NCBI RefSeq assembly: GCF_026210795.1
Contig: NC_089435.1
Span: 1,612,001-1,676,000 of the forward strand
Source: Rhizophagus irregularis
Taxonomy: Eukaryota
Direction: 5' to 3'
DNA: 64,000 bases
How positions within the stretch are numbered: position 1 is the stretch's first letter; every line of letters starts with the position of its first letter. A program made the translations under genes and the position numbers. Of this stretch, positions 1,897 to 41,055 are shown in pieces. The notes under the pieces were generated by a model. The model was not told the DNA's origin, ran no database searches, and saw only the letters and a list, made by a program, of their open reading frames with translations.

Positions 1897-3805
1897 TATG
1901 GCGCGCCAATGTGGACAGATTGGTATTTTATTAATACCAACTCCTGCTATTTAAATAATACTAGCTCTTGTATTTTAAAATTACTGATTTTGCCTAAAAT
2001 GGGGGTCATCTAAAGCCGTGTTCGATCATGTGACTTGACATTTTATGAATAAGCCATTTTTTTATGAACTAAGATTAATGTAAGTATGAAAGTTATAGAA
2101 TAAGTGTATTTTGGCCTGCTTTACAAGTTTACTTAGTGAAAAAAAGCTGGTTTTAAACACTGTTTTTGACTTTACATATGAATGAATAATCTTTGCCGAT
2201 CATATCCAAAAATGGATGACGAAAATGAAAAAATTCAAATAAGTCAAAAACGGTGTTCAAAACCCCATGTTGCGCACTAAGTAAACTTGCACAGCAGGCT
2301 AAAATACACATACTATGTGTAACTTGAAAGTTTTATGTATTGGCGAAAAAGTTTTATTTGTAAAAAATAAATTTTTACAAATCACGTGATCGAACATGGC
2401 TTTAGACGAACCCCTAAAATGGCAATTCCTTTTTATATTATTAGACAGATTTGTATTTATTTAATACCAAATTCCTCTAATTAAATATTACCAACTCTTG
2501 TAATTTTAAAATTAAAATTAGCAGATCTTTTTTCTTTAATAGACAGATTCATATTTTTATTGCCTCCTTTTTTCATTAGAAGATCTTTTTTCTTTAATAG
2601 ACAGATCTGTATTTTTTTATTATTAGCTCTGACGATCATTTTTATTCGCTAAATCTCACTGCAGGTGGTCCTTACCGCAGGTGATTTTATTCCGGCCAAA
2701 TTATAATTCCAGCTGGAGTTAATTGTGTAACCTAATAAAAAGTTTTTGACTTTTTTAGTAACAATGTGGTATAAAAATTGCACCGATGAGTTCGGAAGAT
2801 GCCCGTTTATAATCAAATATGCAGTTGAATTTTGTGTAGCCTCACTGCATAAATCACTTTACTTAAGAAATCTATTTCGTAATGGTCAAAAGTGGTCTAT
2901 TTGACCTTAAAAGTGGTCAAACTTGACCATTAGTTACCTTATTGATGGTTAAAAGTGATCAAATGACCATCAGTTGCCTTAATTGATGGTCAAAAGTAGT
3001 CTATTTGGCCTTAAAAGTAACCATAAACTACCTTACTAATTAATGGTTAAAAGTGGTCAAATATGCACTCGCCTTTAACTACCAATTTATATTAGTATAA
3101 CCAAACAGAAAATTTTCGAAAAATTCCTATGTGCTATATGACCACTTTCTAGAGTCAAATAGACCACTTTTGACCATCAATTAAGGTAGCTGATGGTTAC
3201 GTAATTCACGTTTGCCACTTTTAAGGTCAAATAGACCACTTTTGACCATTACGAAATAGATTTCTTAAGTAAAGTGATTTATGCAGTGAGATTACACAAA
3301 TTTAACTGCATATTTACTTATAAACGGGTATCTTTCGGATCCATTAGTGCAATATTTATACCACATTGTAACTAAAAAAAATCAGAAACTTTTTTTATTA
3401 GGTTACACAAATGAATTTGGCTGGAATTATAATTTGACCTGTGAAATCACCTGCAGTGAGATTTAGCAGATCTGCTAATGAATAAAAATGATCATCAGAG
3501 CTAATAATAAAAAAATATAAATCTGTCTGGTAAAGAAAAAAGATCTGCTAATGAAAAAAGGGGATAATAAAAAATATAAATCTGTCTATTGAAGAAAAAA
3601 GATCTGCCAATTTTAAAATTACAAGAGTTGGTAATATTTAATTAGAGAAAGTTACTAATAAATAAATATGAATCTGTCTAATAATGCAAAAAGAAATTGC
3701 CAAATCTGCCACTTGCAGTAATATTAAAATACATGAGCTGGTATTATTTAAATAGCGGGAGTTGGTATTAAAAAAATACCAATCTGTCCACATTGGCACG
3801 CCATA
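1897..3805. mobile_element. Foldback (long inverted repeat) non-autonomous element, ~1.5 kb excluding the nested MITE
   Basis: TATGGCGCGCCAATGTGGACAGATTGGTATTTTT at 1897 mirrors AAAAATACCAATCTGTCCACATTGGCACGCCATA ending 3805. Arms pair inward (AAATCTCACTGCAGGTG ~2651 / CACCTGCAGTGAGATTT ~3448) to a centre near 3120. ATAAATT occurs at both boundaries. Confidence 0.8.
2002..2413. mobile_element. MITE with long G-starting TIRs (Mutator-like), inserted in the left arm of the foldback
   Basis: GGGGTCATCTAAAGCCGTGTTCGATCATGTGA ... TCACGTGATCGAACATGGCTTTAGACGAACCC. Flanking duplication CTAAAATG (8-10 bp depending on boundary). Absent from the mirror arm. Confidence 0.8.
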
Positions 3806-6454: not shown

Positions 6455-9400
6455 TTAAATATTAATTTCACATTCACCACAATCAGACATTTCTTCAACA
6501 CAATCAGACATTTCTTCAATACAATCAGACATTTCTTCAACACAATCAGACATTTCTTCAACACAATCAGACATTTCTTCAACTAAGATTTCAGTAAGTT
6601 TACGACTTGTATGGTATGCTTGTGCATGAGATTGTATAATAGAAGCATTTGCTTGCTCTTGAACTAAAGTTTTGTTTGATTCTACAAATTCAAACATATC
6701 ATCCCTTAATTTATTATCAATATTAGATACTTCAACTTTATAATTTCCATCTCTGTTTATTTTATAATGTTCATTAATACATCTAACCCACTCTGATATA
6801 ATATCTTCAAGCATTGTTATGGTTGGTCTATTGGAAGGATCTGAATCCCAACATCTTTTCATTAAATCTATATAACATTTTGGAGTATTTTCAATAATTT
6901 CAGGGCGTTCCCCTTTACAAACACTCAAAATAAGGAGATGATCATGTGCTACATGATTAAATGGAGGAATACCTGATGTAAATTCCCACATTATCATTGA
7001 AAAACTATAAATATCACTTGCTGGTGTATAGGGTTTTTGTCTTAATGTTTCAGGTGCCATATAAGGTACAATTCCATAAATTTCATTAATTTTATTGTCA
7101 GAATCTTGTAAATCATTTATAGGTTTACATAATCCTAAGTCAATAATAAATAACTCATTATAATTATCTGATATTAAAATATTGCCATCATGAAAATCAC
7201 CATGAGCTAAATTTGATTCATGAATTACTTTGAGCCCTAATACAATGTTTTTCAATAATTGTAACTTTTCTTGCCATTTAAATTTAATTATATCAGATAA
7301 ACAATTTTTCAAACTTCCTTTTTTTGCATAACTCATTACTATTATATAATTTAAAGTATTTGGATCTTGGGTAAATCCAAAGAATTGAATAAATTTTGAA
7401 AATGATTTTTTCTGACAATTATAATGATATTTCCACTGTATAAATAATAAAACAAAATTAATTTTTGTAAAAGAAAAAAAAATTTGCTAAAAAATATAAA
7501 TAATATATATACCTCATCCAGAAATTTACTATTTAAATTTGATGAATTATTAAGTGTTTTAAGAATAACCTCATAGCTTAATTGCCTATTCCATTGTTGT
7601 TTGTCAAAATTCCAACTAAAAATAGGCCCATCGAACCAGATAGCTTTATGAATTACACCAAAACCTCCTTTATCATGATAATTAATATTTGACAATTTAT
7701 TATAAGGTATCCATTCTAAAATTTCATAACTATTTTTGGCATTTAGTTGTGAATCTTGAATAAATTTATCAATAAATTCATTTTTACTGGTCCACTTTGA
7801 AAAATCATGTTGAAATTGTTTGGCATTACATTGTTGACACCACTGGTAATTAGTATATAGCTGATTGCATATATTACATAATTCATTTTTAAAACCTATT
7901 TTGTTACTTTCTGTTTTTTTTTGACGCCAATAAAAGGCTTTTTCTAAATTCTTTTCCGTTCCTACTCCATTTTTATAAAATATGGCTAAATTATGCATTG
8001 AATCAGTGAAACCATTTTCTGCTGCTTTTTGATACCAATAAAAGGCTTTTTCTAAATTCTTTTCCGTTCCTTCTCCATTTACATAACATAAGGCCAAATT
8101 ATGCATTGCTTTAGTATCACCATTTTCTGCTGCTTTTTGATACCAATAAAAGGCTTTTTCTAAATCCCTTTCTGCTCCTTCTCCATTTACATAACATATG
8201 GCTAAATTATGCATTGAATCAGGGAAACCATTTTCTACTGCTTTTTGATACCAATAAAAAGCTTTTTCTAAATTCTTTTCGGTTCCTTCTCCATTGTAAT
8301 AACATACGGCTAAATTATGCATTGCATTAGTAACACTATTTTCTGCTGCTTTTTGATACCAATTAAAGGCTTTTTCTAAATTCTTTTCTGTTCCTTCTCC
8401 ATTTTTATAAAATATGGCTAAATTAAACATTGAATCAGTGAAACCATTTTCTGCTGCTTTTTGATGCCAATAAAAGGCTTTTTCTAAATTCTTCTCTGTT
8501 CCTTCTCCATTGTAATAACATAAGGCTAAATTATGCATTGAATAAGTAAGACCATTTTCTGCTGCTTTTTGATGCCAATAAAAGGCTTTTTCTAAATTCT
8601 TTTCTGTTCCTTCTCCATTTGCATAAAATATGGCTAAATTAAACATTGAATCAGTGAAACCATTTTCTGCTGCTTTTTGATACCAATAAAAGGCTTTTTC
8701 GAAATTCTTTTTTGTTCCTTCTCCATTTTTATAACATATGGCTAAATTCTGCATTGAATCAGTGTAACCATTTTCTGCTGCTTTTTGATACCAATAAAAG
8801 GCTTTTTCTAAATTCTTTTCTGTTCCTTCTCCATTGTAATAGCAATTGGCTAAATTATTCATTGAAACAGTTAAACCTTTTTCTGCTGCTTTTTGATACC
8901 AATAAAAGGCTTTTTCTAAATTCTTTTCTGTTCCTTTTCCATTGTAATAACAACTGGCTAAATTATTCATTGAAAAAGTTAACCCATTTTCTGCTGCTTC
9001 TTGATACCAATAAAAGGCTTTTTCTAAATTTGTTTCTGTTCCTTCTCCATTTACATAACATATGGCTAAATTATGCATTGATTTAGTAAAACCATTTTCT
9101 GCTGCTTTTTGATACCAATAAAAGGCTTTTTCTAAATTCTTTTCTGTCCCTTCTCCATTGTAATACCTTTTTGCTAAATTATGTATTGAATCAGTAAAAC
9201 CATTTTCTGCTGCTTTTTGATACCAATTAAAGGCTTTTCCTAAATTCTTTTTTGTTCCTTCTCCATTGTAATAGCAATTGGCTAAATTATGCATTGAATC
9301 AGTGAAACTATTTTCTGCTGCTTTTTGATACCAATAAAAGGCTTCTCCTAAATTCTTTTTTGTTCCTTCTCCATTGTAATAGCAATTGGCTAAATTATGC

Positions 9401-10749
9401 ATTGAATCAGTGAAACCATTTTCCGCTGCTTTTTGATACCAATAAAATGCTTTTTCTAAATTCTTTTCCGTTCCTTCTCCATTGTAATAGCAATTGGCTA
9501 AATTATTCATTGAATCAGTGAAATTATTTTCTGCTGCTTTTTGATACCAATAAAAGGCTTTTTCTAAATTCCTTTCTGTTCCTTCTCCACCATAATATCT
9601 ATTGGCTAAATCATGCATTGCTTTAGTGAAACCATTTTCTGCTGCTTTTTGATACCAATAAAATGCTTTTTCTGAATTCTTTTCTGTTCCTTCTCCATTG
9701 TAATAGCAATTGGCTAAATTATTCATTGAATCAGTGAAATTATTTTCTGCTGCTTTTTGATACCAATAAAAGGCTTTTTCTAAATTCTTTTTTGTTCCTT
9801 CTCCATTGTAATAGCAATTGGCTAAATTATTCATTGAATCAGTGAAATTATTTTCTGCTGCTTTTTGATACCAATAAAAGGCTTTTCCTAAATTCTTTTT
9901 TGTTCCTTCTCCATTGTAATAGCAATTGGCTAAATTATGTATTGAATCAGTGAAACCATTTTCTGCTGCTTTTTGATACCAATAAAATGCTTTTTCTAAA
10001 TTCTTTTCCGTTCCTTCTCCATTGTAATAGCAATTGGCTAAATTATTCATTGAATCAGTGAAATTATTTTCTGCTGCTTTTTGATACCAATAAAAGGCTT
10101 TTTCTAAATTCTTTTCTGTTCCTTCTCCATTTGCATAAAATATGGCTAAATTAAACATTGAATCAGTGAAACCATTTTCTGCTGCTTTTTGATACCAATA
10201 AAAGGCTTTTTCTAAATTCTTTTTTGTTCCTTCTCCATTGTAATAGCAATTGGCTAAATTATGCATTGAATCAGTGAAACTATTTTCTGCTGCTTTTTGA
10301 TACCAATAAAAGGCTTCTCCTAAATTCTTTTTTGTTCCTTCTCCATTGTAATAGCAATTGGCTAAATTATGCATTGAATCAGTGAAACTATTTTCTGCTG
10401 CTTTTTGATACCAATAAAATGCTTTTTCTAAATTCTTTTCCGTTCCTTCTCCATTGTAATAGCAATTGGCTAAATTATTCATTGAATCAGTGAAATTATT
10501 TTCTGCTGCTTTTTGATACCAATAAAAGGCTTTTTCTAAATTCTTTTCTGTTCCTTCCCCATTGTAATACCTTTTGGCTAAATTAAACATTACTACTCTA
10601 TTACCATTTTCTGCTGATTTTTCTAAAGAGTTAATACATTCTTTACACCATAATTCTTCAGTAAAGGGTTTATTACTACAATATAAACAATTTTTGGGGT
10701 TTACTATATTAGTAACTGAGGTATTAGATTTACTGAGTTTGGTTTCCAT
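6455..10749 (-). CDS. Sel1-like repeat (25x) protein with C-terminal TKL-type protein kinase; exons 10749-7513 and 7435-6455, 1405 aa
   Basis: A 77-nt phase-0 intron at 7512-7436 (GTATAT...TACAG) joins FLDE to WKYHYNCQ. Kinase motifs KGGFGVI, EVILK, HGDFHDGN, DLG, YMAPE, DIYSFS, CWDSDPSNRP. Repeat unit MxNLAxCYYNGEGTEKNLEKAFYWYQKAAENG. Confidence 0.92.
6476..6583 (-). repeat. 21-bp coding minisatellite encoding (VEEMSDC) x5 at the kinase C-terminus
   Basis: CAATCAGACATTTCTTCAA(C/T)A repeated five times. Confidence 0.9.
7915..10600 (-). repeat. 108-bp tandem array, 25 units (Sel1 repeats)
   Basis: The TTGATACCAATAAAAGGC-type anchor recurs every 108 bp from 7921 to 10513. Confidence 0.92.
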
Positions 10750-28085: not shown

Positions 28086-28838
28086 GAAAAAATTAAGCAA
28101 AAAAATAAATAAATAAATAAAGGGAAAAAATACACATTAATATAGATTATAAAGAAAAATATAAAAAAAATTTCAGTTTGTTTTATAAAAAAAAACAAGA
28201 AATCAAAAAGGAATTATAAAAAACATTTTAATAAAGAAAAAAAAATTACAAAATAATAATTTTATAAAATTTATACCCATGATCTTTTTCCTTTTCTGCT
28301 ACAGGACTTTACATAATCTTTTTCTTCTTGTAATTCAGGCATCTCAACTTCAAACATTTCTTGAAGAGAAGTATCATTGGTTTCGACATAATGATATTAT
28401 GCATTTTATTTATGGGAGAATCAATACATTATATACTTTCACATGAAATAGGTATGACGAAAGTATTATAAATTTTCTTTTTATTAACTGTTAACATTAA
28501 TAATAATTATTAACAGTAAAAACATTAAAATAGGTATTAATTATATACTAATTACTATTAAAAAAAATTATATTAATTTTCAATTTAGACAAATAAATTA
28601 TCGATTCTATTTTTTTTTTTGACTGGATATGTTTTTTCATTTTTTACTAAGTAAAAAAATATATTTTATTTCAATTACACAGTGAAATTCGATAAACCGG
28701 ATATTCGATAAACCGGATTTGGGCCTAAACCGGACTTTTTTTCTGGAACCAAATCACGTATATTAAAATAGGCTCGATATACCGGAGTTTACTAGTAAAA
28801 GCTCGATATTCGCTATAACGGATCAATTTTCTAACCAG

Positions 28839-29463
28839 TGTAACACCTGAGCCCATAGAAAATTATGTTTGCCACCTCAGGTATTAACAAAATGACTCTT
28901 TATTAATAATATAAATAAATACAATAATATGCTTGGTTTAATAACATTAAATAATAAAATAAATAATTCATAACAAAATTCGTCCAATTTTCTCTCTCTC
29001 TCTCTCTCTGTCCTTTCCAAAAGGTGATCTTCACGCCCTTTTATGTTTGTTTTTGTGTAACTAAATTCATAATTTCGATTCATGGATTTAAATTATTAAA
29101 GTATTTCCATTGTTTTAAAGTATTTCCATTATCTTAATTTTGTATCCATTTGATCATCATGAACTCCTGAATTATGATTTATAATATTAACGTAGTGATC
29201 AACAAATTAATCACTTGACACCTCAGATCACTTGATTTCATTCAATTTAGTATCTTTCGGATCTTCATTTATCCTTAAATCTCGTGACTAATAGTTTAAG
29301 GTCATCACGGACCAATTACCTTGATCCATGTGATTATTAGTTTAACGACTTCTCGGTCCAATTAAAATAAAAATAAAAATAAGTTAAAATTTTATACACT
29401 AAGACTAAATGTAATACTGCGCCTCACAATTAATAAATTTACTAGGTATACTACGGCATTACA
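28839..29463 (-). repeat. 3' LTR (625 bp)
   Basis: TGTAACACCTGAG...CGGCATTACA. No difference from 38763-39387 seen by eye; both carry (TC)9 and give identical 68-aa translations in the track. Confidence 0.97.
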
Positions 29464-29475
29464 ACTATCCCCCAC
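29464..29475 (-). promoter_or_regulatory. Polypurine tract
   Basis: Minus strand GTGGGGGATAGT immediately precedes the 3' LTR. Confidence 0.8.
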
Positions 29476-29498
29476 ATAAAAATTTAATGCCCACATTA

Positions 29499-29568
29499 AA
29501 TTTATTCTAAGAATCGAACTCGTGTCTCGAAGTGGTAGGTGCGAATTATACCACTAAATCAAACATGC
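29499..29568 (-). ncRNA. Degenerate tRNA-Gly-derived sequence with Pol III box A and box B, inside the retrotransposon
   Basis: GCATGTT TG ATTT AGTGGTA TAAT T CGCAC CTACCAC TTCG AGAC ACGAG TTCGATT CTTAG AATAAAT follows the eukaryotic tRNA-Gly(GCC) layout; the anticodon position reads ACC. Stems are partly broken. A hairpin and T5 follow. Confidence 0.7.
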
Positions 29569-29800
29569 ATTGTCACTTGACTCAGTTGCGTTTTAAATAT
29601 TCCTTTTTGCTGCGTCTACATCTGCGGTTTATCATGTGTTTGTTAAGTCTACGGTTTTCCTGTACCGGATTTCACTTTGGTCTTTCTTAGGAAATTTTCA
29701 TTAGTTTTTCCTATTTTCGAAAATTATTTTTATGTCATGTGATTTTATTTCACATGATTATAAATTATCTTTATTTTTCTAAGTCCATTGATGATAGTTA

Positions 29801-31582
29801 TCATTTACTCATCGGTGTATGGTAAGTCTTTAATAATTCTCCATTTACAGGTATCTTCTTGATGACACCTTTAATATTTTTAATTCTATAAGCTCCATTC
29901 GGTAGTATTTCATGAATGTAAAATGGTCCCAACCATTTTGATTCTAATTTTCCCGATAGTTGTTGTGCTTTGGCTTTATCATAGAGTAGTATTTTATCTC
30001 CAATTCCAAAGGTGTGTTCTTTGATTATTTTTCTGTCATGATACTCTTTTTGTTTTGTTTGAGATTTCAGTATTTGTTCTTTGGCTTCATGTCGGGTTTT
30101 TGGTAGTTCTTCCAATAATCCAACTATTCTATCACTTAGGTTAATTTCTTTGATATTTTCATCCATTATTGTCCGTACATTTCTTCCGTATGTTAAATAA
30201 AATGGTCGAATTTTTGTTGAACTATGCTTTTTATTTCGGTAAGCAAATAATATGGGTGCTATCCTTTGATCCCAATCATCTTTGGTTGATAATTTCGCTA
30301 ATGCTTGACCTAATGTTCGGTTGAATCTTTCAACAAGTCCATTTGTCTCTGGATGATAACTTGTAGAAAAATTCCATTTAATTTTGAATTTTTCCATTAA
30401 TTCTTTAATCATTTCATTATTGAAATGACTTCCTCTATCACTCAATATTTTCATTGGACATCCATGTCTACAAATGATGTCTTCATAAATAAATTTTGAT
30501 ACTTCTTTGGCAGTTGCTTCCTTTACTGCTTTGGCTTCTGGCCATTTTGTAAAATAATCCATTGCTACTATGATGTATTTATTACCATTTGTTGTCGTGT
30601 TCAATGGTCCAACAAAGTCAATCCCGATTTGATACCATAGTTCTACTACTTTAATTGGGTGTAATTCATTTTTCCCTTGTGGTTTTCCTCTTCTTTGACA
30701 TTCGTCGCATGTCCTTACATATCTTTCAACGTCATTCAGCATATTTTCCCAATAATATTTATCTTTTAAATTATCATAAGTACTTTTGATTCCCATATGT
30801 GCCGATAATTCATGACTGTGAGCTAAATATAGTGCTCCCATCTTTTCAAAATCTTCTATTATTCTGATGTTTTTACCATTTTTCTCAATATGCTTTTTAC
30901 CATCAGTTACCCTGATGTTATCCTTAATCTCAACATTTTTAACCTCTATTGGTGGTTTATCTCCATCTAATTCTATTATTTTATTATATACTCTTTCCCA
31001 ATCTGTGTCATTATTTGATATTTTAATATTAGCATATTTTTCTCCTTCGTAAATATCTTGACATTCTTTAAATGATTTCACCATCTCCATATATCTTTCT
31101 TCATCTAATAATGGATATGATGTTTTATGTCCTTGATCCTTTTTCGAATATTCTCTACCTTTGTAATTTTCCCAACATTTTTCATTTTCTAAAAATATCA
31201 CTATTGATTCATCAATTATCCTTTTGTTCCTAAATACTTCCTTTTCTAATAGGTGGTTCTCATATCTTGTTATGTATCCTCTGTCGAATGATGGTGTTTG
31301 TTGATAAAAGTACTCACTATAGGGACTTTTATCTAATATTAACCAATCCTCATTATCATGTTCTTCCATTCTCCTGTTGATTTGTTCAACAACTTCCTTC
31401 CTGAATTCCCATTCTATACCTTTCTTTGGTATTTTATACTTATCATTGTCCTCTCTTTTCCTTTTAAAGGTGTTAAACCTCACACTTTGTCCTACTTTTT
31501 CAAATTCTTTTATAAGTTTATTTACAATGAATGTTTTTCCAGTACCATCAACTCCACATATGATTATTATTTTAGGTCCCAT
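29801..31582 (-). CDS. Fusion protein, 593 aa: thymidylate/dNMP-kinase-like P-loop domain (aa ~1-207) plus gypsy integrase
   Basis: IIIICGVDGTGKT and LILDKSPYSEYFYQ; then HHCC (AHSHELSAHMG...CDECQR), catalytic GIDFVGP / SDRGSHF / NGLVERFN, and GPF motif KWLGPF. Confidence 0.9.
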   Translation of the reverse strand: MGPKIIIICGVDGTGKTFIVNKLIKEFEKVGQSVRFNTFKRKREDNDKYKIPKKGIEWEFRKEVVEQINRRMEEHDNEDWLILDKSPYSEYFYQQTPSFDRGYITRYENHLLEKEVFRNKRIIDESIVIFLENEKCWENYKGREYSKKDQGHKTSYPLLDEERYMEMVKSFKECQDIYEGEKYANIKISNNDTDWERVYNKIIELDGDKPPIEVKNVEIKDNIRVTDGKKHIEKNGKNIRIIEDFEKMGALYLAHSHELSAHMGIKSTYDNLKDKYYWENMLNDVERYVRTCDECQRRGKPQGKNELHPIKVVELWYQIGIDFVGPLNTTTNGNKYIIVAMDYFTKWPEAKAVKEATAKEVSKFIYEDIICRHGCPMKILSDRGSHFNNEMIKELMEKFKIKWNFSTSYHPETNGLVERFNRTLGQALAKLSTKDDWDQRIAPILFAYRNKKHSSTKIRPFYLTYGRNVRTIMDENIKEINLSDRIVGLLEELPKTRHEAKEQILKSQTKQKEYHDRKIIKEHTFGIGDKILLYDKAKAQQLSGKLESKWLGPFYIHEILPNGAYRIKNIKGVIKKIPVNGELLKTYHTPMSK

Positions 31583-31811
31583 TTTTACATAATTCTGATA
31601 ATTTTAGCTTGTTTACTTTACTTAATATCACCTCTATTTGTAATATTTCCCCTTGAGTTTCCAATATTAATGGTCTTTCTTCACTATCTTCAAAATTTTT
31701 GGCTTTGAATTTATAGTTATAATTTATCCTGTTTAATTCCTTTGTTATACCTTCTAAATTTTCGATTATATCCTTTATTTTATGATTTGTATTTCTTACC
31801 ACTTGTTCCAT
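31572..31811 (-). CDS. Small predicted coiled-coil ORF (79 aa) between RNase H and kinase-integrase
   Basis: AAAAATGG start context like gag and the integrase ORF; heptad-like IKDIIENLEGITKELNRI; 11-nt overlap with the next ORF. Confidence 0.55.
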   Translation of the reverse strand: MEQVVRNTNHKIKDIIENLEGITKELNRINYNYKFKAKNFEDSEERPLILETQGEILQIEVILSKVNKLKLSELCKNGT

Positions 31812-31847
31812 TTTTATTTTTGAAAAGTAACTCTTTTACCCATCTAT

Positions 31848-33329
31848 TTATATTATTCTTGATAAGGCATCTGCGTTTTTATTTTCTTTTCCTGGTCTAT
31901 GGGTTATTTCAAAATCATACTGTTCCAATTCCATGACCCATCTTGATCTCTTTCCTTTTGGTACTTTTGCAGTCATTAATCCCTTTAAAGCTGCATGGTC
32001 TGTTACTACCTCAAATTTTCTATTGATCAAGTATTTATGGAAATGTTGTATTCCCCATACAATTGCATAACATTCTTGTTCGGTTATTGGCCATCTTTGT
32101 TCTGTCCTGTTTAAACTTTTACTGGCATATTCTATTACGTATTCTTGACCTTTATCATCTTTTTGAGCTAACACTGCCCCTAATCCTATTCCTGAAGCAT
32201 CTGTAATTAATATAAATTTCCTTAACCAATCTGGTTGTCTTAACACCGGTTCTTCGGTTAATTTCCTTTTTAATATTTCTAATGCTTCATGTTGTTTGAT
32301 GCCCCATTCAAACTTTTCATCTTTTCTCAATAAAGATGTTATTGGTTTTACTATTTTTGAAAAATCTTTAATAAATTTTCTATAATACGTACATAACCCC
32401 AATATTGACCTTACACCTTTTATATTTATAGGTGCTGTTAATTTTTGTATCTTTTCAACCTTTCCTGGACTTGGTTTTAATCCATTTTTACCAACTACAT
32501 GTCCTAAAAATTCTATTTCTGTTTTTCCAAATATACATTTCTTTAACTTTAGTATTAAACTGGCTTCCTTTAATTTTTCTAACACTAACTTTATGTGTTT
32601 CAGGTGGTCTTCAAAATTTTCTGAATATATCATTATATCATCAATGTATACTATCACAAATTCATTTAGGTACTCCTTTAATACTTTATCCATTAACCTT
32701 TGAAAACTTGCAGGCGCATTTGTTAACCCAAATGGCATGACATTATATTCATATAATCCTGCTGAGCATATAAATGCTGTTTTCTCAATATCTTCCTCAG
32801 CCATTTCTATCTGATTAAACCCTGATGCTAAATCTAGACTAGTAAACCATCTTCCTGAACTTATCCTTTCTAATTGTTCATCAATCCTTGGTAATGGATA
32901 TGCATCTGTTATTGTAACTTTATTTAATTTTCTATAGTCGATGCAAAACCTATAATTTCCAGACTTTTTTCCTGCTAAAGTCACTGGTGAAGACCATGGA
33001 CTTCTGGATTCTCTAATTTTTCCCAATTTTAACATCTCGTCAACCTCTTTTCTGATGAATTTACCTTTTTCATCATTTTCTTTGTACCTCTTTTGGGCTA
33101 TTGGTTCAGTACCCCCTTTTAATCTGATTTCATGTTTTACTAGGTTTGTCCTATTATATTTTTCACCATCATACTCAAATATATCCTTATATTTTTCTAC
33201 TAATACCTTTAATTTACCTTTTTGTTCATTGGTTATGTCCCCTACTTTAAATTTTTCAGTAAATTTTTCATGGTCACTTTTGTGCTTCTTTATCGTCTCT
33301 TCAGTATCATTCTGACCAAGACTTATACT
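31848..33329 (-). CDS. pol: Reverse transcriptase-RNase H reading frame (493 sense codons, no ATG at its 5' end)
   Basis: The frame opens at 33329 (SISLGQNDTEE...LVEKYKDIF...KHEIRL...EVDEMLKLGKIRES). Motifs SPWSSP, RFCIDYRKLN, MPFGLTNAPASFQ, YIDD, TDAS, EQEC, TDH, NADALSR; TAA at 31850-31848. Confidence 0.92.
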   Translation of the reverse strand, partial: SISLGQNDTEETIKKHKSDHEKFTEKFKVGDITNEQKGKLKVLVEKYKDIFEYDGEKYNRTNLVKHEIRLKGGTEPIAQKRYKENDEKGKFIRKEVDEMLKLGKIRESRSPWSSPVTLAGKKSGNYRFCIDYRKLNKVTITDAYPLPRIDEQLERISSGRWFTSLDLASGFNQIEMAEEDIEKTAFICSAGLYEYNVMPFGLTNAPASFQRLMDKVLKEYLNEFVIVYIDDIMIYSENFEDHLKHIKLVLEKLKEASLILKLKKCIFGKTEIEFLGHVVGKNGLKPSPGKVEKIQKLTAPINIKGVRSILGLCTYYRKFIKDFSKIVKPITSLLRKDEKFEWGIKQHEALEILKRKLTEEPVLRQPDWLRKFILITDASGIGLGAVLAQKDDKGQEYVIEYASKSLNRTEQRWPITEQECYAIVWGIQHFHKYLINRKFEVVTDHAALKGLMTAKVPKGKRSRWVMELEQYDFEITHRPGKENKNADALSRII

Positions 33330-33862
33330 TTAAAATTTTCATCTTCCTGACCTTCATGGTCATCTTCATATATGTTATACAATTCATCCTGGTATAATTC
33401 TTCTAATATTTCCTCTTCATCAAATGTTTCTTCAAACCCTTTAATGGTCCTTTGTGTGTATTTCACTGGTATATCCATAGTTTCATCATTCATTCTAATT
33501 ATTATTGTTTTATCCGTGTAATCTATATTCGCCTTAAACATATCTAATACTCCATTTCCTAACACAATTTCGTTTTTTCCTGAATCAATTACTTCAACCT
33601 TAATGGGTATCTCCTTATCCCCAAATTGTATGTATATTGTCGTGGTACCCCTAGATGCTAATTTATCCTCATTTATCATCACACATCTTACTGTACTTGG
33701 TTCCTCAATTTTTAGGTCCATTTCATCCATTATCTGACTAGTTATTACATTTACTGCTGCTCCTGTATCAAACATTACGTCCTTTAATTCTTGGTTTATT
33801 ATTAATTTACCCCTTAATGCAGTTAAGTGTTCTGCTTCAATGTTGTTCATTGATTCTTGTAG
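33323..33862 (-). CDS. pro: Retropepsin-type aspartic protease, in frame with gag behind one TGA
   Basis: VMFDTGAAVNVI and IVLGNGVL; junction GAT TGA CTA CAA GAA TCA ATG. Confidence 0.88.
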   Translation of the reverse strand, partial: LQESMNNIEAEHLTALRGKLIINQELKDVMFDTGAAVNVITSQIMDEMDLKIEEPSTVRCVMINEDKLASRGTTTIYIQFGDKEIPIKVEVIDSGKNEIVLGNGVLDMFKANIDYTDKTIIIRMNDETMDIPVKYTQRTIKGFEETFDEEEILEELYQDELYNIYEDDHEGQEDENFKV

Positions 33863-36800
33863 TCAATCTGTTTGTGGATACCTTCTCATTCCTTCATGAT
33901 ATATTTTTCTTTGCTCTGGACTTATGTTTATAATTTGTGAAAAGGTTGCATTTGCTCTGGTATTTTTCATATCCTCTAATACGTTATATTCTGGTGTGTT
34001 CCTCTGAAATGCGCTTGTCCTATGGATACCTTCAACACGTTCATTTTTACATTGTTTTGCATAGTGACCTCTTTGTCCACAATTTCCACATGTATTATTA
34101 TTTCTCCTTGCTTCTTGTGCTTTCCTCAGACTTTCATCAGTGAATCCTCTTTTTGGTAATGCTGCTGCCCTTTCCTCTTGGCTTGCATATTTATTATTCC
34201 TTCTTCGTGCTTGTTCTTGGTCAATTTCCATATCTATATCTCGATTACTTGACCTATTTTTTATGTTACTTCTCGTTTGTCTTTCACCAATATAAAAGTC
34301 TTGATCAACATGGTTAAATGTTACATCATTATCTTGATAATACGGGTCGTCATAACTATATCCTTGATCATAATTATCCTGATAATCCTGACTATCATAA
34401 TCATATTGGTCATATTGATCATTATAATTATCATATTCCACTACATTGAATCCTCGATTATTGTTTTGGTGGTTTGGTGGTCTGTTATAGTTATTTGGTC
34501 TTCCATTATAGTTATTTGATCTTCTATTATAATTTTGATTATTTGGTCTTCCATAGTTTCTTTGACCATTATTTACCCTACATTCATTTGCATAATGTCC
34601 TGGTTGTTTACAATTATAACATGCTCGAGGTGGTGGTCCTTGTCTATTGTTATTGTTTGGTGGTCTCTTTTGCCCTCCAAGTTGATTTACTAGTTTTACC
34701 TCTAATTTTTTAAACATGTCGGCAAGGTCATCCTCATAATTTTTCTCCAATGGTTTTTCAAATATATTCTTTGGCTTGTCATCTTGTATATCGATTCCTT
34801 TTCTTTGGGTACTAACTGATATACCACGTGTCTTTCTTATTAATTCATTAGTAGCTTCCTCCTCTCTTCTTGCTGTATTCACCGCATCATTTAGATTTGC
34901 TGGGTTTTGTCTTCTGACTTGATATCCCAATGTTGGTGTTAATCCTTCGATATAATTATCCACTTGTAATTCATCATCTAATGCATGGCCTCTGGTAGCT
35001 ATCCTTAATATTTGTCTAAACCTTATCGTATATGCCTCAACATTTTCATTTACTCCTTGTGTTATTTTCCTTAATTCTAACATTTTCCTTTTTCTAACAT
35101 CCTCTCTGGTAAATCTTTGTTTAACTCTATGTTTCAAATCATTATCATCATCATTGTCTGCCCAATTTACTAAATGTCCATTATTTGCTTCCTTCTTTTC
35201 ATTATACCATTGTGCTGCTGCACCTTTCAAACAGGTAGCTGCCATTGCTGCTTGTCTAGCTCCATTTACTCCTGCTGCTTTTCCTATGGCAGTGAATGCT
35301 GTTTCAAATTGTCTTACCCAATCATTAACATCTTCTTCTTCTTTTCCATAAAAGTGTGGCAAACTAATTATTCCTCCAGCTGCGTTTCCTGCATCCTCAA
35401 TTGCATTTGCTAATGGGTTGGCTGCGATTAATCCAGCCCAATTACCTCCTATATCATGTCCTGTTGTTGCTAGTAAAGCCGCTCTAACATCTTCCCTTAC
35501 TTCAGCTCTTGTTGCTCCCATAATTATTGGTACTATTGGTGGGATTGGTGGTATCGGTGGTGTTAAAGGTGTTTCAAATAAATTTTCTATATTATAATCA
35601 GATATTTCACTTTTATCCTCAGAATTTGATTCTGAACTTTCACTTGAGTCAAAACCGGGTCTATTTATAATGTTTTCTTCATAAGGTTCTTCAAAATTTT
35701 CATTGCTATCGGTATCATTTGGATTTAAAATTTCTCTATTCTTTTCAGATCCATCTGATTCTTTTTCAGATCCATCAGATTTTTCGTTATCAGATTCATT
35801 TCCACTGCTTTCACTATCCCCAATTCCAGCTTGCTGTTTTAGAAATTTATCTAATATCCGCCTTAAATTTTTCTCCAAATCATTTTTATTTCCTTGGAAT
35901 ATTTCAATAAATTCTTGATCCAATATTTCTCCATCAGTATATCCCATACTGATTAACCTTAATAACTCTCCATCAGTTATTTCTATTTTATTATCATCAC
36001 ATATTTGTTTTAATCTTTTGACCCTGATATCAATTTCATTTTCGTCATTCTCACAATCCCTACACTTGGTTTTTCCTTCGTCAAATTTATTGTTCATCCA
36101 TCTTATTCCACATTCATCACAAAATGTGGTATTTTCATTTATCCATTCATATAATTTTGTCCTTAATTCTTTGTCATTCGTATCAATTTCCTGAAAATAT
36201 TTTTCCATAAATTCCGTTGTTAATATTATACTATTGCTTATCCTGAATTTTCTTATTCTCTCTATTTCTGACACATTTAATTCGTATCCTAGTTTTTCTA
36301 AGTCATCCTTTAATTCTAATAATTCTTTTTGTTCACAATTTTTACATTGTCCAATGTCTGCTATCATATCAGGTAACTTTCTATTCCTACAATTTCCACA
36401 TATTAATGTTTCTTTTGTTAACCATTCATTTATTTCATCTTTTAATTTTTCATCACTTAGTCTCATTAATTCGAAAAATGTACCTAAAAAGTCCTCTGTT
36501 AATATCAATTCTATCCTTATCCTTAGGTCCCACATCCTTTGTATATCTTTGTCGGTGAACCTTCCACCCATTTCTTCAATTTTTCTTTTTAATGATTCTA
36601 CTGTCCATTCGACATCATCCTCTATTTTTATTTCATAATGTATACTACCATCACTGTCCTCTAATTCATAACTTTCAGGACTAGCACTTTCTGGGTCCTC
36701 AGGTTCCCTTGTAAATTGTTTGGTATCAATAAATCTTTGTCTTACTTTTGATACATATCTTACCCATGCATCACCTCCTTCTTGCGTGTCTACCTCACAT

Positions 36801-37450
36801 CTATTTTGATATTCTATCTGGAGTAATAATTCAATTACCTCTTCTTTCCTCAACAGATCTTCTGTTTCTTCATATAATAGATCCCTGAATAACTTCATTG
36901 CTAACTTCTTAACATGTATTGCTTTCATTTCATTTTCCAATATCGTGTTATACCAATCCCAAAATTTTTGAAACCTATTTTCAACATCCCAATCTTCTAA
37001 AATGTATCCATGTTTCATTATTTCTGGGCATCCTATTAATCGATCAAATATTTCATTTTCCAAGTTTCCTTCAATACAATCCCTTACAATTACTACAATT
37101 ATTATTCTCAATCCTTTTTCCTTCATTTTTGGTTGTTGTCTGTACCTTATTGATTCAATTATTCTATCTACTATATTCCTACATTTTCCCTTATGTATTG
37201 TATCCTCCCTTTCTCTATTGTCCATACTTAATAAATTCAATAATTCTTTATGTGTTACATTATTGTACATTAGTATTGTATCCTCGAATTTAAACAAAGC
37301 ATCCCAAAATTTCTTGAATGCCGCTGATACTTCTCTTTCTATTGGGTTACATATTTCACATGCTAAACATTCCTCTGGTTCTATCACTCCTAGGTCATGT
37401 TCTTGTTTATGGTTTATATATTCAGCGTTCCAAACATGGTACCATTCCAT
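33863..37450 (-). CDS. gag: Gag with ~640-aa N-terminal extension; capsid-like domain and two CCHC knuckles, 1195 aa
   Basis: LPHFYGKEEEDVNDWVRQFE...LKGAAAQWY...ITQGVNENVEAYTIRF; CYNCKQPGHYANEC; CGNCGQRGHYAKQC. Confidence 0.9.
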   Translation of the reverse strand: MEWYHVWNAEYINHKQEHDLGVIEPEECLACEICNPIEREVSAAFKKFWDALFKFEDTILMYNNVTHKELLNLLSMDNREREDTIHKGKCRNIVDRIIESIRYRQQPKMKEKGLRIIIVVIVRDCIEGNLENEIFDRLIGCPEIMKHGYILEDWDVENRFQKFWDWYNTILENEMKAIHVKKLAMKLFRDLLYEETEDLLRKEEVIELLLQIEYQNRCEVDTQEGGDAWVRYVSKVRQRFIDTKQFTREPEDPESASPESYELEDSDGSIHYEIKIEDDVEWTVESLKRKIEEMGGRFTDKDIQRMWDLRIRIELILTEDFLGTFFELMRLSDEKLKDEINEWLTKETLICGNCRNRKLPDMIADIGQCKNCEQKELLELKDDLEKLGYELNVSEIERIRKFRISNSIILTTEFMEKYFQEIDTNDKELRTKLYEWINENTTFCDECGIRWMNNKFDEGKTKCRDCENDENEIDIRVKRLKQICDDNKIEITDGELLRLISMGYTDGEILDQEFIEIFQGNKNDLEKNLRRILDKFLKQQAGIGDSESSGNESDNEKSDGSEKESDGSEKNREILNPNDTDSNENFEEPYEENIINRPGFDSSESSESNSEDKSEISDYNIENLFETPLTPPIPPIPPIVPIIMGATRAEVREDVRAALLATTGHDIGGNWAGLIAANPLANAIEDAGNAAGGIISLPHFYGKEEEDVNDWVRQFETAFTAIGKAAGVNGARQAAMAATCLKGAAAQWYNEKKEANNGHLVNWADNDDDNDLKHRVKQRFTREDVRKRKMLELRKITQGVNENVEAYTIRFRQILRIATRGHALDDELQVDNYIEGLTPTLGYQVRRQNPANLNDAVNTARREEEATNELIRKTRGISVSTQRKGIDIQDDKPKNIFEKPLEKNYEDDLADMFKKLEVKLVNQLGGQKRPPNNNNRQGPPPRACYNCKQPGHYANECRVNNGQRNYGRPNNQNYNRRSNNYNGRPNNYNRPPNHQNNNRGFNVVEYDNYNDQYDQYDYDSQDYQDNYDQGYSYDDPYYQDNDVTFNHVDQDFYIGERQTRSNIKNRSSNRDIDMEIDQEQARRRNNKYASQEERAAALPKRGFTDESLRKAQEARRNNNTCGNCGQRGHYAKQCKNERVEGIHRTSAFQRNTPEYNVLEDMKNTRANATFSQIINISPEQRKIYHEGMRRYPQTD

Positions 37451-37976
37451 TTTTAATAAAATTCTCTAAAAATTTTCACGTCTTTTACTTTTTATCCTTC
37501 TTTTATATTTTATTTGACCTATACTGGGCTTGCCTTTACCTCACTTGTTCATTACTGAGTATGGTAGTTTACAGGTTTGTACAAATAAATTTACATTTTC
37601 CTTGAAATTCCCAACCTAAAGTTGGAATGTGATTCCATATTTGATTTCATTAATTTCATTATGTATCTTTAATTTAACTCCTTTTATACACGTATTTTCC
37701 CAATTCTTCTTCAGTTAAATTGATTTTATGTACAATCATTTTAATTTCTTGTTATAATTATTATTATTTTATTATTATCGTTATTTTGTTATATTTTGAA
37801 ATAATAAGTGGGAGATCCAAATCTCCCTCCTATATTTATATTTTTCCTTGGTCATGTGATTTTTGTCAATCTTCCTATTTTTATTATTTTTAATTCATCC
37901 TTAACTTTTATATATTTGTCCAGCAAATATTATTTTAATTTTTGTTAACGTTAATCATGATTTTTCTTGGGTACCC

Positions 37977-38169
37977 TCACACAGAATTGTTTTTGGAAGT
38001 TCACACAGAACTATTCTCAATTGATCACACAGAATACCTCAATTGAGTTCACACAGAAAAAGCTCACACAGAACTATTCTCAATTGATCACACAGAAAAC
38101 CTCAATTGAGTTCACACAGAATTATTCTCAATTGATCACACAGAAAACCTCAATTGAGTTCACACAGAA
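37977..38169. repeat. 24-bp-period tandem array in the retrotransposon leader (9 copies of TCACACAGAA)
   Basis: Cores at 37977, 38001, 38025, 38049, 38064, 38088, 38112, 38136 and 38160. Confidence 0.9.
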
Positions 38170-38742
38170 TTACCCTACCATCGTATTTATAGTGTCGGTT
38201 TTTGGGTACACTTTTTATCCTTAACTTAACCTCAATTATTCATAAAAATTATTTTTAATCCTTAATTCATGGAACTTATTTACAATATTCTATTAAAACC
38301 CCTTCTAACTTGATTAGCCTCGCATTTCCCTTGATAATCAATTACTACCATACATATTTGGTTCATATGTATGAAAATTATTATAATAATAATTTTTCAT
38401 TGACTTATCAGCCGGTGGTCAAGTTAGATCAAAAATTTAATTTTTAACATTATCTCTTTATACATTTATGGTCATACTTACCCAAATTAATACCTTTTAC
38501 CTTGGTAACCATTATTTTCACGTATCCTTTAAAATATTTAACTTTATTTTATTAAAATTTAACGTTAATACACCTTAAATTCTTTTTTAACCAAGACTTA
38601 GAACTTTTAATTTTATAATTCCTTAACTTCGTCGATCCTTTATTTGTAACTTCTAATGATCACGTGGGGGTGATCATTTTCTTTTCTCAGAGATCCTATA
38701 CTTATAACCTGTAGTGATCATGTGAGGATGATCACTTTTCCT

Positions 38743-38760
38743 TTCTCGGAGCATGCACCA
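38743..38760 (-). promoter_or_regulatory. 18-nt primer-binding site, probably tRNA-Gly
   Basis: Minus strand TGGTGCATGCTCCGAGAA begins 2 nt after the 5' LTR. Its complement TT-CTCGG-AGCATGC-A-CCA reads as T-loop end, T-stem, acceptor strand, discriminator and CCA. Confidence 0.85.
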
Positions 38761-38762
38761 CT

Positions 38763-39387
38763 TGTAACACCTGAGCCCATAGAAAATTATGTTTGCCACC
38801 TCAGGTATTAACAAAATGACTCTTTATTAATAATATAAATAAATACAATAATATGCTTGGTTTAATAACATTAAATAATAAAATAAATAATTCATAACAA
38901 AATTCGTCCAATTTTCTCTCTCTCTCTCTCTCTGTCCTTTCCAAAAGGTGATCTTCACGCCCTTTTATGTTTGTTTTTGTGTAACTAAATTCATAATTTC
39001 GATTCATGGATTTAAATTATTAAAGTATTTCCATTGTTTTAAAGTATTTCCATTATCTTAATTTTGTATCCATTTGATCATCATGAACTCCTGAATTATG
39101 ATTTATAATATTAACGTAGTGATCAACAAATTAATCACTTGACACCTCAGATCACTTGATTTCATTCAATTTAGTATCTTTCGGATCTTCATTTATCCTT
39201 AAATCTCGTGACTAATAGTTTAAGGTCATCACGGACCAATTACCTTGATCCATGTGATTATTAGTTTAACGACTTCTCGGTCCAATTAAAATAAAAATAA
39301 AAATAAGTTAAAATTTTATACACTAAGACTAAATGTAATACTGCGCCTCACAATTAATAAATTTACTAGGTATACTACGGCATTACA
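38763..39387 (-). repeat. 5' LTR (625 bp)
   Basis: Same sequence as 28839-29463. Confidence 0.97.
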
Positions 39388-41055
39388 CCAGCTATAGTAA
39401 AAATGATTCGATAAACCGGATCACGTGACTGAGAACCAATAAAATTTAAGTAACGTGATGCGGTAAATCTTAAATTTGGTCGGAATTATAAAAATCTTAA
39501 TTCCGGCTGAAGTTAAGTATTACTTATATATTCAATTAAAATATTTTATATTCATTTTCATGACCTCTATAACTTAAAACTAGATGAAAAAATCAAATTA
39601 TAGTGTATATTAGTTTTATTAGCATGAAAATTTTTTAAAAATTCAATATAATAGATTTTCAATATATCGAAATTTTTTCGCTAAACCGGATATCCCGATA
39701 AACCGGATATTTTTAGTGGAACCGATAGATCCGGTTTATCGAATTTCACTGTGTATATCACAGCACTATTGACTTCGATCAAAACCTAACGCTAAAAGGT
39801 GCACAAAATAAAAAATAATTAGGAAAAAAATCCAAATCTAAGGGGTGAAAGAATGAAAAAACTAAATTAGCAAAAAATAATTAGATAAAAAAATTATTAT
39901 TAAAAATAAGTATCGAAAAAAAGGTGCTTAGTGTAACATCGCATCGAGTCATCAAAAAGTAGTTGTTATTTTATTTGAATATCGTAATTTTATTTTTCTT
40001 AAATTTAATTTGGATTCCGAGTTGTAGAATCGTTAAGGTGTTAGAAAATTCATATAATATAGCGAAAAATAAAATATTAAAAATAGATATTCATTCATTA
40101 AATAAGATTTCAGGTGAAGAAGGTATTAGGAATAATATATATTTTTGAGGGAATATATTAGATTTCTATAATGTTATATAATACTTTTTTCTCATTTTAT
40201 TCAGTAGGAGAAATAGAGAATTTGTAAGGAGGGTTGTGCAGGTGAAAAACAAGGTTGGCAAGTCTAGGATATTCAAATCTTAGCCAGGTAGAGGTGCTGC
40301 ATTGGAGGGGAGTTATCACTGATTTAATTATTTCCGTTGTTGTAGTTGTCTGTAATGTATTATTTTGTAGTATAGTTATGTACCTTTTCTCTTCAAAATT
40401 GTATCATTTCTGGATTTTCAAATTCTCGTTTAATGAAAAATGAAAATAAAAATAAAATAAAAGTTACACAATTAATTGATCATCAATTATGCCCGAAAAT
40501 ATAGGTTCTTTTTTCCAAAAAAAAAAGAAATTAGTAATCAAAAACTGTTAATAAAAAGAAACAAATAAATTATTGATAAGAATAAGAAAACCAAATTTTT
40601 TATTATGCTACGAAATAATTTATTGTTCTAGATGGATTAAAGGTCATAATATCATACTTAATAACTTTTTTCATTGTTAAATGTGTAATAATACATATGT
40701 CACCTCAATCTAACAGCTGGTCATATTTACAAAATTGAAGCAATATTCAAAGTATCAAAGAAATTTGACTGACTTTTAAATTATTTAGGCCATATTCCTA
40801 GTTTTTAGTTGACAATATTTATCTTGTTTGCATATAAATTATTAATTATTTCAGTTATATTTATTATGTATAATGCAATCTACAAGAAATAATAATTATA
40901 GTATTACTCTAAGATATGCAATAATACTAATAACAAATTGCAAACGCAAATAAAAATATAAATAAACATCGTTTCAATAATTATCATACTTGTTACTTTA
41001 TTGTAAAAACTGCAAAAATACATAATAATAATGTTTTCTTTATAATAAATAATAG

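Follow-up and report, generated by a model that had tools for sequence, protein, structure and literature searches.

The window, the 64-kb stretch of Rhizophagus irregularis DNA analysed here, contains an LTR retrotransposon that is complete and occupies positions 28839-39387 of the − strand, and the sequence of interest, hereafter the cassette, lies within the 3′ untranslated region (UTR) of this element (Table 1). The element is 10,549 bp long, coding and autonomous, and its two LTRs are identical to each other. Its termini are those of a Ty3/gypsy element, with an LTR pair, a 4-bp target duplication, an 18-base primer-binding site (PBS) separated from the 5′ LTR by two bases, and a polypurine tract (PPT); its gene order, gag-protease-reverse transcriptase (RT)-RNase H-integrase by Pfam matches, is likewise that of Ty3/gypsy elements. 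The integrase is 98% identical to an R. irregularis protein cluster of 47 members. The identical LTRs and open frames indicate a young copy, suited to biochemistry.

Table 1 Features of the element and of the cassette, in window coordinates, ordered along the element from 5′ to 3′
Feature	Position	Strand	Basis or remark
Target duplication, 4 bp, 5′ LTR side	39388-39391		
5′ LTR, 625 bp, TG...CA	38763-39387	−	Sequence comparison of the LTR pair
PBS, 18 bases	38743-38760	−	Complementary to tRNA-Gly positions 59-76; fits the loose end of the host contig
gag ORF	33863-37465	−	Retrotrans_gag, Ty3_capsid, zinc knuckles
Aspartic protease ORF	33323-33862	−	In frame after the gag stop
RT-RNase H ORF	31848-33329	−	
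Integrase ORF, separate	29801-31603	−	N-terminal P-loop kinase-like domain
Sense copy of primer tRNA-Gly positions 1-62 (cassette), drifted, no recognisable acceptor 3′ strand	29510-29568	−	Host tRNA contigs
D-arm stretch resembling box A, altered at tRNA position 10	29551-29561	−	Host-contig variant at 29559
Conserved 18-base core, tRNA positions 43-61	29511-29528	−	14 copies in 12 related loci
Box-B-like stretch, inside the core	29511-29521	−	
Pre-PPT hairpin, perfect, 10 bp	29480-29503	−	z −4.3; equivalents with different stems in LTR-type relatives
T run and PPT	29464-29482	−	Directly precedes the 3′ LTR
3′ LTR, 625 bp, TG...CA	28839-29463	−	Identical to the 5′ LTR
Target duplication, 4 bp, 3′ LTR side	28835-28838		

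Several other features of the element and its surroundings were recorded. The gag stop codon (33863, − strand) is in frame with the protease ORF, and read-through is possible; the RT ORF overlaps the protease ORF in a different frame, and 244 bases separate the RT-RNase H ORF from the integrase ORF. The P-loop domain of the integrase matches AAA_28 with an E value of 4e-5, below the curated cut-off; a precomputed thymidylate kinase match exists in a relative (P0004), and agreement of the N-terminal domain with solved structures is limited to the P-loop. A nucleotide kinase would be an unusual component of a retrotransposon. Downstream of the PBS, the 5′ leader (37973-38169 and 38650-38740, − strand) includes tandem 24-base repeats and two similar hairpins, and base 29474 of the PPT differs from nearly all public contigs aligned in four runs. 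The element is flanked by a perfect 27-base inverted repeat (28676-28702 and 39729-39755), and was probably inserted into a small DNA transposon. Elsewhere in the window, an ORF with 25 Sel1 repeats of 108-base period (7351-10749, − strand) adjoins a kinase ORF, an arrangement typical of this fungal group.

Origin of the cassette

The initial annotation described a tRNA-like sequence of 70 nt with boxes A and B, followed by a hairpin, five Ts and the PPT. The letters, the box-like stretches, the hairpin, the T5 (29478-29482) and the PPT are all in place on the − strand, and the tRNA-like sequence is present, although it is 59 bases long (tRNA positions 1-62) rather than 70. The pairing reported between the cassette and the tRNA implied by the PBS is also correct: GCATGTT forms 7/7 pairs, one of them G-U, with the PBS-implied acceptor strand, and the 5′ strand of the T stem forms 4/5 pairs with its PBS-implied partner.

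A host tRNA ending in the complement of the PBS, which the same annotation had predicted as the source of the cassette, is present in public contigs. The host contig aligns solely to 29532-29568, matching at 33 of 37 positions with four differences; this similarity is beyond chance (~1e-13 per site). The alignment was obtained in three of four runs (X1, X5 and X14), and X17 shows the same loose end, a stretch of 34-37 bases comprising the anticodon stem, variable loop, T arm and an acceptor strand that ends in the PBS complement. Similarity starts exactly at the first base of the cassette, G1 (29568, − strand); the upstream flank of the host contig is unrelated, and the flanks of the host tRNA contig and the cassette differ on both sides. 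The host primer tRNA is 71 bases long without CCA, and its anticodon reads xCC, indicating that it is a glycine tRNA. Only one of the four differences, at tRNA position 10, is displayed in the alignment; we infer from stem pairing that the remaining three are at tRNA positions 6 and 29 and the first anticodon base. The core, which spans the variable loop, the 5′ T-stem strand and the T loop, is identical to the host tRNA at 17/18 positions and differs at position 49. Given the match to the host tRNA and the unrelated flanks, we conclude that the cassette almost certainly derives from the primer tRNA-Gly predicted by the PBS, of which it copies positions 1-62 in sense orientation. The 12 bases that follow the copy are identical to the host acceptor strand at 4/12 positions, and six of the eight differences, counted by eye, are C>T or G>A; hence, these bases could be a decayed acceptor strand.

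As a tRNA, the cassette is degraded. ARAGORN detected no tRNA in the 64-kb window and Rfam gave no tRNA match to the cassette even at E 10, such that neither identified a cloverleaf with an acceptor stem; the anticodon stem and the T stem are both broken, each with 3/5 pairs. The initial annotation had named a lack of covariance-model similarity as an argument against tRNA ancestry. Although such similarity is formally lacking, the direct alignment to the host tRNA overrides this argument. We also considered that drifted bases refold the 5′ part of the cassette into a new hairpin, and rejected this: the fold holds for the isolated sequence but not in its 137-base context.

Within R. irregularis, the cassette is the same in the dominant contigs of four runs, down to the bases at which it departs from the host tRNA. 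A diverged subfamily (X14 and X17) shares 29508-29582 with seven differences; the six that are displayed are all C>T or G>A, and four of them are at the four CpGs of the cassette. Both the hairpin region and the upstream sequence of this subfamily differ from those of the window, and a third variant (X1 and X17) diverges at 29591. The long copy is common to at least three subfamilies, by selection or block transfer.

The 18-base core in related elements

A metagenome search with an integrase alignment yielded 494 confirmed stretches, of which we examined the best 80 loci (49-64% integrase identity). Thirty-seven of these are LTR-type loci, in which a PPT and the start of an LTR follow the integrase. 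In the other 43 (e.g. L026, L033, L042, L062 and L072), the integrase is not followed by a PPT and an LTR; these loci were separated by eye as another element type. Several of them have an additional ORF immediately beyond the stop, and seven that were included in the integrase tree form their own clade; they are possibly integrase-type DNA transposons. L060, a locus without LTR features, has a tRNA-like sequence downstream of the integrase (3174-3252) with good acceptor and T arms and a T-rich anticodon arm. Genome contigs yielded ten loci, none of them informative, and viral contigs contained no relatives.

Among the best 80 loci, the equivalent of host tRNA positions 43-61, GAGACCCGAGTTCGATTC, occurs as 14 copies in 12 loci with ≤3 mismatches. 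All 14 copies are in the sense of the element, and none was found in antisense at this threshold. Copies are located before the PPT in L024 (twice), L030 and L036 (twice), 56-132 bases before the LTR, and inside the LTR in L003, L004, L009, L010, L016, L017, L021, L034 and L040, 104-181 bases before the PBS where the PBS is visible. Placement before the PPT is the minority arrangement (3/37 LTR-type loci plus the window). The 14 sense copies fall within 24,298 bases of 3′ UTR and LTR, where 0.0014 would be expected, and the 90,178 bases of internal sequence, the 11,632 bases that follow the PBS and the 128,025 bases of the 43 other-type loci contain none; local shuffles gave 0 matches at three mismatches and 1.4 at four. 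The query was taken from L030, but the test is not circular, since the motif equals the letters of the host tRNA. The 5′ half of the tRNA and box A were found in none of 81 loci. The initial annotation had proposed comparing the cassette across related elements; part of the tRNA (positions 43-61) is present in them, whereas box A and the 5′ half are not.

The motif is missing from 25 of the 37 LTR-type loci, most of which are sequences that stop before the end of the LTR; L014 has a deletion that extends from the motif to the PBS. In an alignment of 14 rows, ten columns of the core are invariant, four of them outside box B, and the invariant box-B bases are G53, T54, C56, G57 and A58. Position 55 varies, being T in 9/14 copies and in the window, and A in 5/14. 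Carriers of the core belong to seven lineages of the integrase tree, the deep branches of which are open, plus the window element, which has a long branch and an unsure place; across lineages, the flanks of the core are unalignable. On its own, the core is not specific to Gly across life, since a 17-base version matches 34 viral stretches, 13 of them in tRNA genes, which are of seven kinds, and 21 elsewhere. We conclude that the core is likely conserved and functional.

Presence of the core is linked to primer identity, with 9/11 loci that have a visible Gly PBS carrying the sense core. L006 lacks the motif despite its Gly PBS and complete LTR. L066, which also has a Gly PBS, carries an antisense copy of tRNA-Gly positions 43-60 (2974-2991 region) with four mismatches, 27 bases after the PBS; this copy resembles a primer activation signal, and its polarity is opposite to that of all other copies. 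Neither of the two loci with a different PBS, L020 and L022, which form one well-supported clade, has the motif. Judging from the acceptor letters, the primer of these two loci is probably tRNA-Ala; we searched for a sense copy of this presumptive primer, and none was found at ≤3 mismatches in a fitting place. The PBSs of L003, L004 and L009 have one or two extra bases in the middle, which suggests that the PBS may not be re-copied from the tRNA in these loci.

The hairpin and T run do not belong to the tRNA-derived piece. The hairpin is a stable structure (0/200 shuffles are as stable), and three of the five Ts belong to its 3′ arm. In most LTR-type relatives, the T run and PPT are immediately preceded by a short hairpin whose loop is rich in purines; its stem letters vary by lineage, and it occurs whether or not a tRNA piece is nearby, making the hairpin and T run a clade-wide pre-PPT feature. 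The hairpins of the relatives come from single folds, with 4/26 windows mis-anchored, and in a MAFFT alignment of 17 rows the pair count was 61.5% paired versus 63.2% when slid by one, the rows being out of register. The hairpin is likely a PPT-processing or packaging signal, and likely not a Pol III product of the cassette.

Possible functions of the core

Since the core is identical to the tRNA, not complementary to it, it can pair with the primer only via minus-strand DNA. Positions 44-58 of a tRNA lose their partner once a PBS takes positions 59-76, and annealing of tRNA-Gly to the PBS would therefore free this stretch. At both of its locations, the core is copied early by the minus strand, before the plus strand reaches the primer. 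After RNase H has cleared the template, the minus-strand copy of the core would be the sole complement of the freed stretch, on a DNA strand covalently joined to the primer at its own 5′ end. The hybrid would then stall RT or be cut by RNase H, resulting in plus-strand strong stop and primer removal without m1A58. Our preferred reading, which we hold with slightly less than even confidence, is that the core acts at the DNA stage, with the minus strand pairing with the exposed T arm of the primer so as to block or trim it. More doubtful is the wider proposal that a fungal Ty3/gypsy clade has replaced the m1A58 stop by a self-encoded DNA guide that directs the RNase H cut. Of the options in the initial annotation, a structural element for strand transfer comes nearest to the preferred reading.

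The pairing reading is supported by the match to the host tRNA, the sense-only copies, the two early-copied positions, the recurrence of the core in several lineages despite unalignable flanks, the invariant columns beyond box B alongside a variable T55, and the link with the Gly PBS. The complementarity of the minus-strand core and the primer amounts to −25.7 to −33.2 kcal/mol (RNA parameters). In the leaders of the elements themselves, no partner for the core was better than shuffles (0/10), and refolding of the core copies into a T arm gave 1-3 of 5 pairs. According to PMC13191261, the plus-strand stop of retroviruses is set by m1A58; on an unmodified tRNA, copying runs on to the 5′ end. 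Ten modifications are given for yeast Gly-GCC in Table S16 of PMC10791586, none of them m1A, although this may not hold for the present fungus; the 21 m1A rows of that table include no Gly tRNA. The same absence of a block on the primer would allow RT to copy the tRNA to G1, which would explain the longer copy in the window: RT would have switched from the core onto a packaged tRNA, copied it to G1 and returned. This switch-and-return step is unsure, because an acceptor strand may once have occupied the next 12 bases and decayed since.

Other observations weaken the pairing reading. The Ala-like clade has no copy, even though yeast tRNA-Ala is likewise absent from the m1A rows (PMC10791586, Table S16), and this otherwise-primed control is a single clade. 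L006 does without the motif, the recurrent change of T55 to A is unexplained by pairing alone, and the relatives are metagenome loci. Moreover, the first plus strand of Ty3 is described as a dead end, with the PBS not inherited, and Ty3 recycles its PPT, making a precise first stop less critical (PMC5371799). The PBS variants of L003, L004 and L009 suggest that the situation in this clade is as in Ty3, in which case the clade would have less need for a precise stop.

The main rival to the pairing reading, although unlikely, is that the core is a TFIIIC box B site that serves as a DNA-methylation boundary or, in the window family, as part of a Pol III promoter whose transcript ends at the hairpin and T run. 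The five invariant box-B bases, the T55 kept in the window and in most relative copies, and the box-A-like stretch and T5 of the window all fit such a site, and the LTRs of Helenus elements retain tRNA-derived boxes, according to PMC10886601. However, conservation of the core also covers tRNA positions 44-50, outside the box; the copies are strictly in sense orientation, and they are missing where the PBS differs. The box B consensus requires T55, yet five of the copies have A at this position. No relative has a box A, and that of the window is changed; taken with the changes at T55, this speaks against the selective keeping of boxes A and B that the initial annotation envisaged. A still less probable explanation is neutrality: RT would have switched templates repeatedly onto the packaged primer tRNA, leaving unselected relics whose ends reflect the PBS duplex and the anticodon stem. 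Neutral relics could account for the variable positions of the copies, the doubled copies in L024 and L036, the lack of a pre-PPT copy in many relatives and the drift of the 5′ part of the window copy, but not readily for a core with ≤3 mismatches across lineages of 49-64% integrase identity and unalignable flanks. Furthermore, the fixed variants A49 and A55 indicate that the core is not re-copied in every cycle, and the diverged R. irregularis subfamily retains 29508-29582 with mostly CpG decay while both flanks differ.

Sense orientation would also suit a signal in the RNA of the element, in which RT, nucleocapsid or glycyl-tRNA synthetase would bind the core as a mimic of the T loop, to the benefit of packaging or primer placement; a tRNA-like element of HIV-1 is described as binding LysRS (PMC4810235). 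We consider this improbable, given that no copy is able to form a T arm, that an 18-base identity to one tRNA exceeds the needs of a loop mimic, and that the fold of the cassette is context-dependent. We give very little credence to descent from a once complete, self-encoded primer tRNA gene, as the initial annotation had suggested, even though the copy in the window family extends over positions 1-62 and the 12 bases that follow it may derive from an acceptor strand that has decayed. The acceptor 3′ strand is missing from the window and from all 14 relative copies, none of which has a 3′ end complementary to the PBS. There is no intact copy in the LTR-type loci, whose 3′ UTRs contain no intact tRNA, or in subfamilies from six runs; no gene flank was carried along, and a host gene exists, with a depth in X1 as high as that of the element.

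Relation to known systems and implications

The feature described here is neither a bipartite PBS, a Helenus element, a tRNA gene nor a self-encoded primer. It resembles the bipartite PBS of Ty3 and Ty1 in being a second stretch that corresponds to the T arm, close to the 3′ end and distant from the PBS; as described in PMC5371799, however, the RNA of those elements is complementary to the tRNA and pairs with it at initiation, whereas here the RNA is identical. L066, antisense at four mismatches, alone shows Ty3-like polarity, against 14 sense and 0 antisense copies at ≤3 mismatches. The lentiviral primer over-extension sequence and the strong stop at m1A58 (PMC13191261) involve the same tRNA bases and the ending of plus-strand copying beside an 18-base PBS. 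According to that source, the over-extension sequence is antisense, abuts the PBS and tolerates read-through; in contrast, the core is sense, lies at least 100 bases away and would prevent read-through. Helenus and TRIMp3, which include fungal examples, are LTR elements with a non-working tRNA-derived stretch; Helenus elements are described as non-coding, <1 kb, with boxes A and B in the LTR, and their tRNA piece is described without a link to the primer (PMC10886601). The element studied here is 10.5 kb long and autonomous, its relatives have no box A, and the window copy is outside the LTR. The U3-R region of HIV-1 reportedly contains a tRNA-Lys3-like sequence, a copy of its own primer close to the 3′ end, for which a role in strand transfer has been proposed; this sequence is said to be complementary to the tRNA at the RNA level, opposite to the polarity of the core. 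Cer7 of C. elegans is said to encode its own primer tRNA, with a tRNA-like sequence before the 3′ LTR that matches the PBS, whereas the priming 3′ end is missing from every copy here. Neither a sense copy of a primer nor the PBS of this clade was described in the literature searched, which did not extend to most subscription papers or to Repbase.

For annotation, these findings call for caution, as such pieces are neither tRNA genes nor SINEs. The additional contacts known between retroelements and their primer tRNAs involve complementary RNA. A sense copy that is conserved can pair only through cDNA, and points to an undescribed step in reverse transcription. The system offers a direct test of plus-strand termination on primers without m1A58, with natural controls in the two positions of the core, one antisense case, one loss and a primer switch. 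If the DNA-guide proposal is true, it would represent a third kind of primer-template contact, made by cDNA rather than RNA, and tRNAs without m1A58 could serve as primers.
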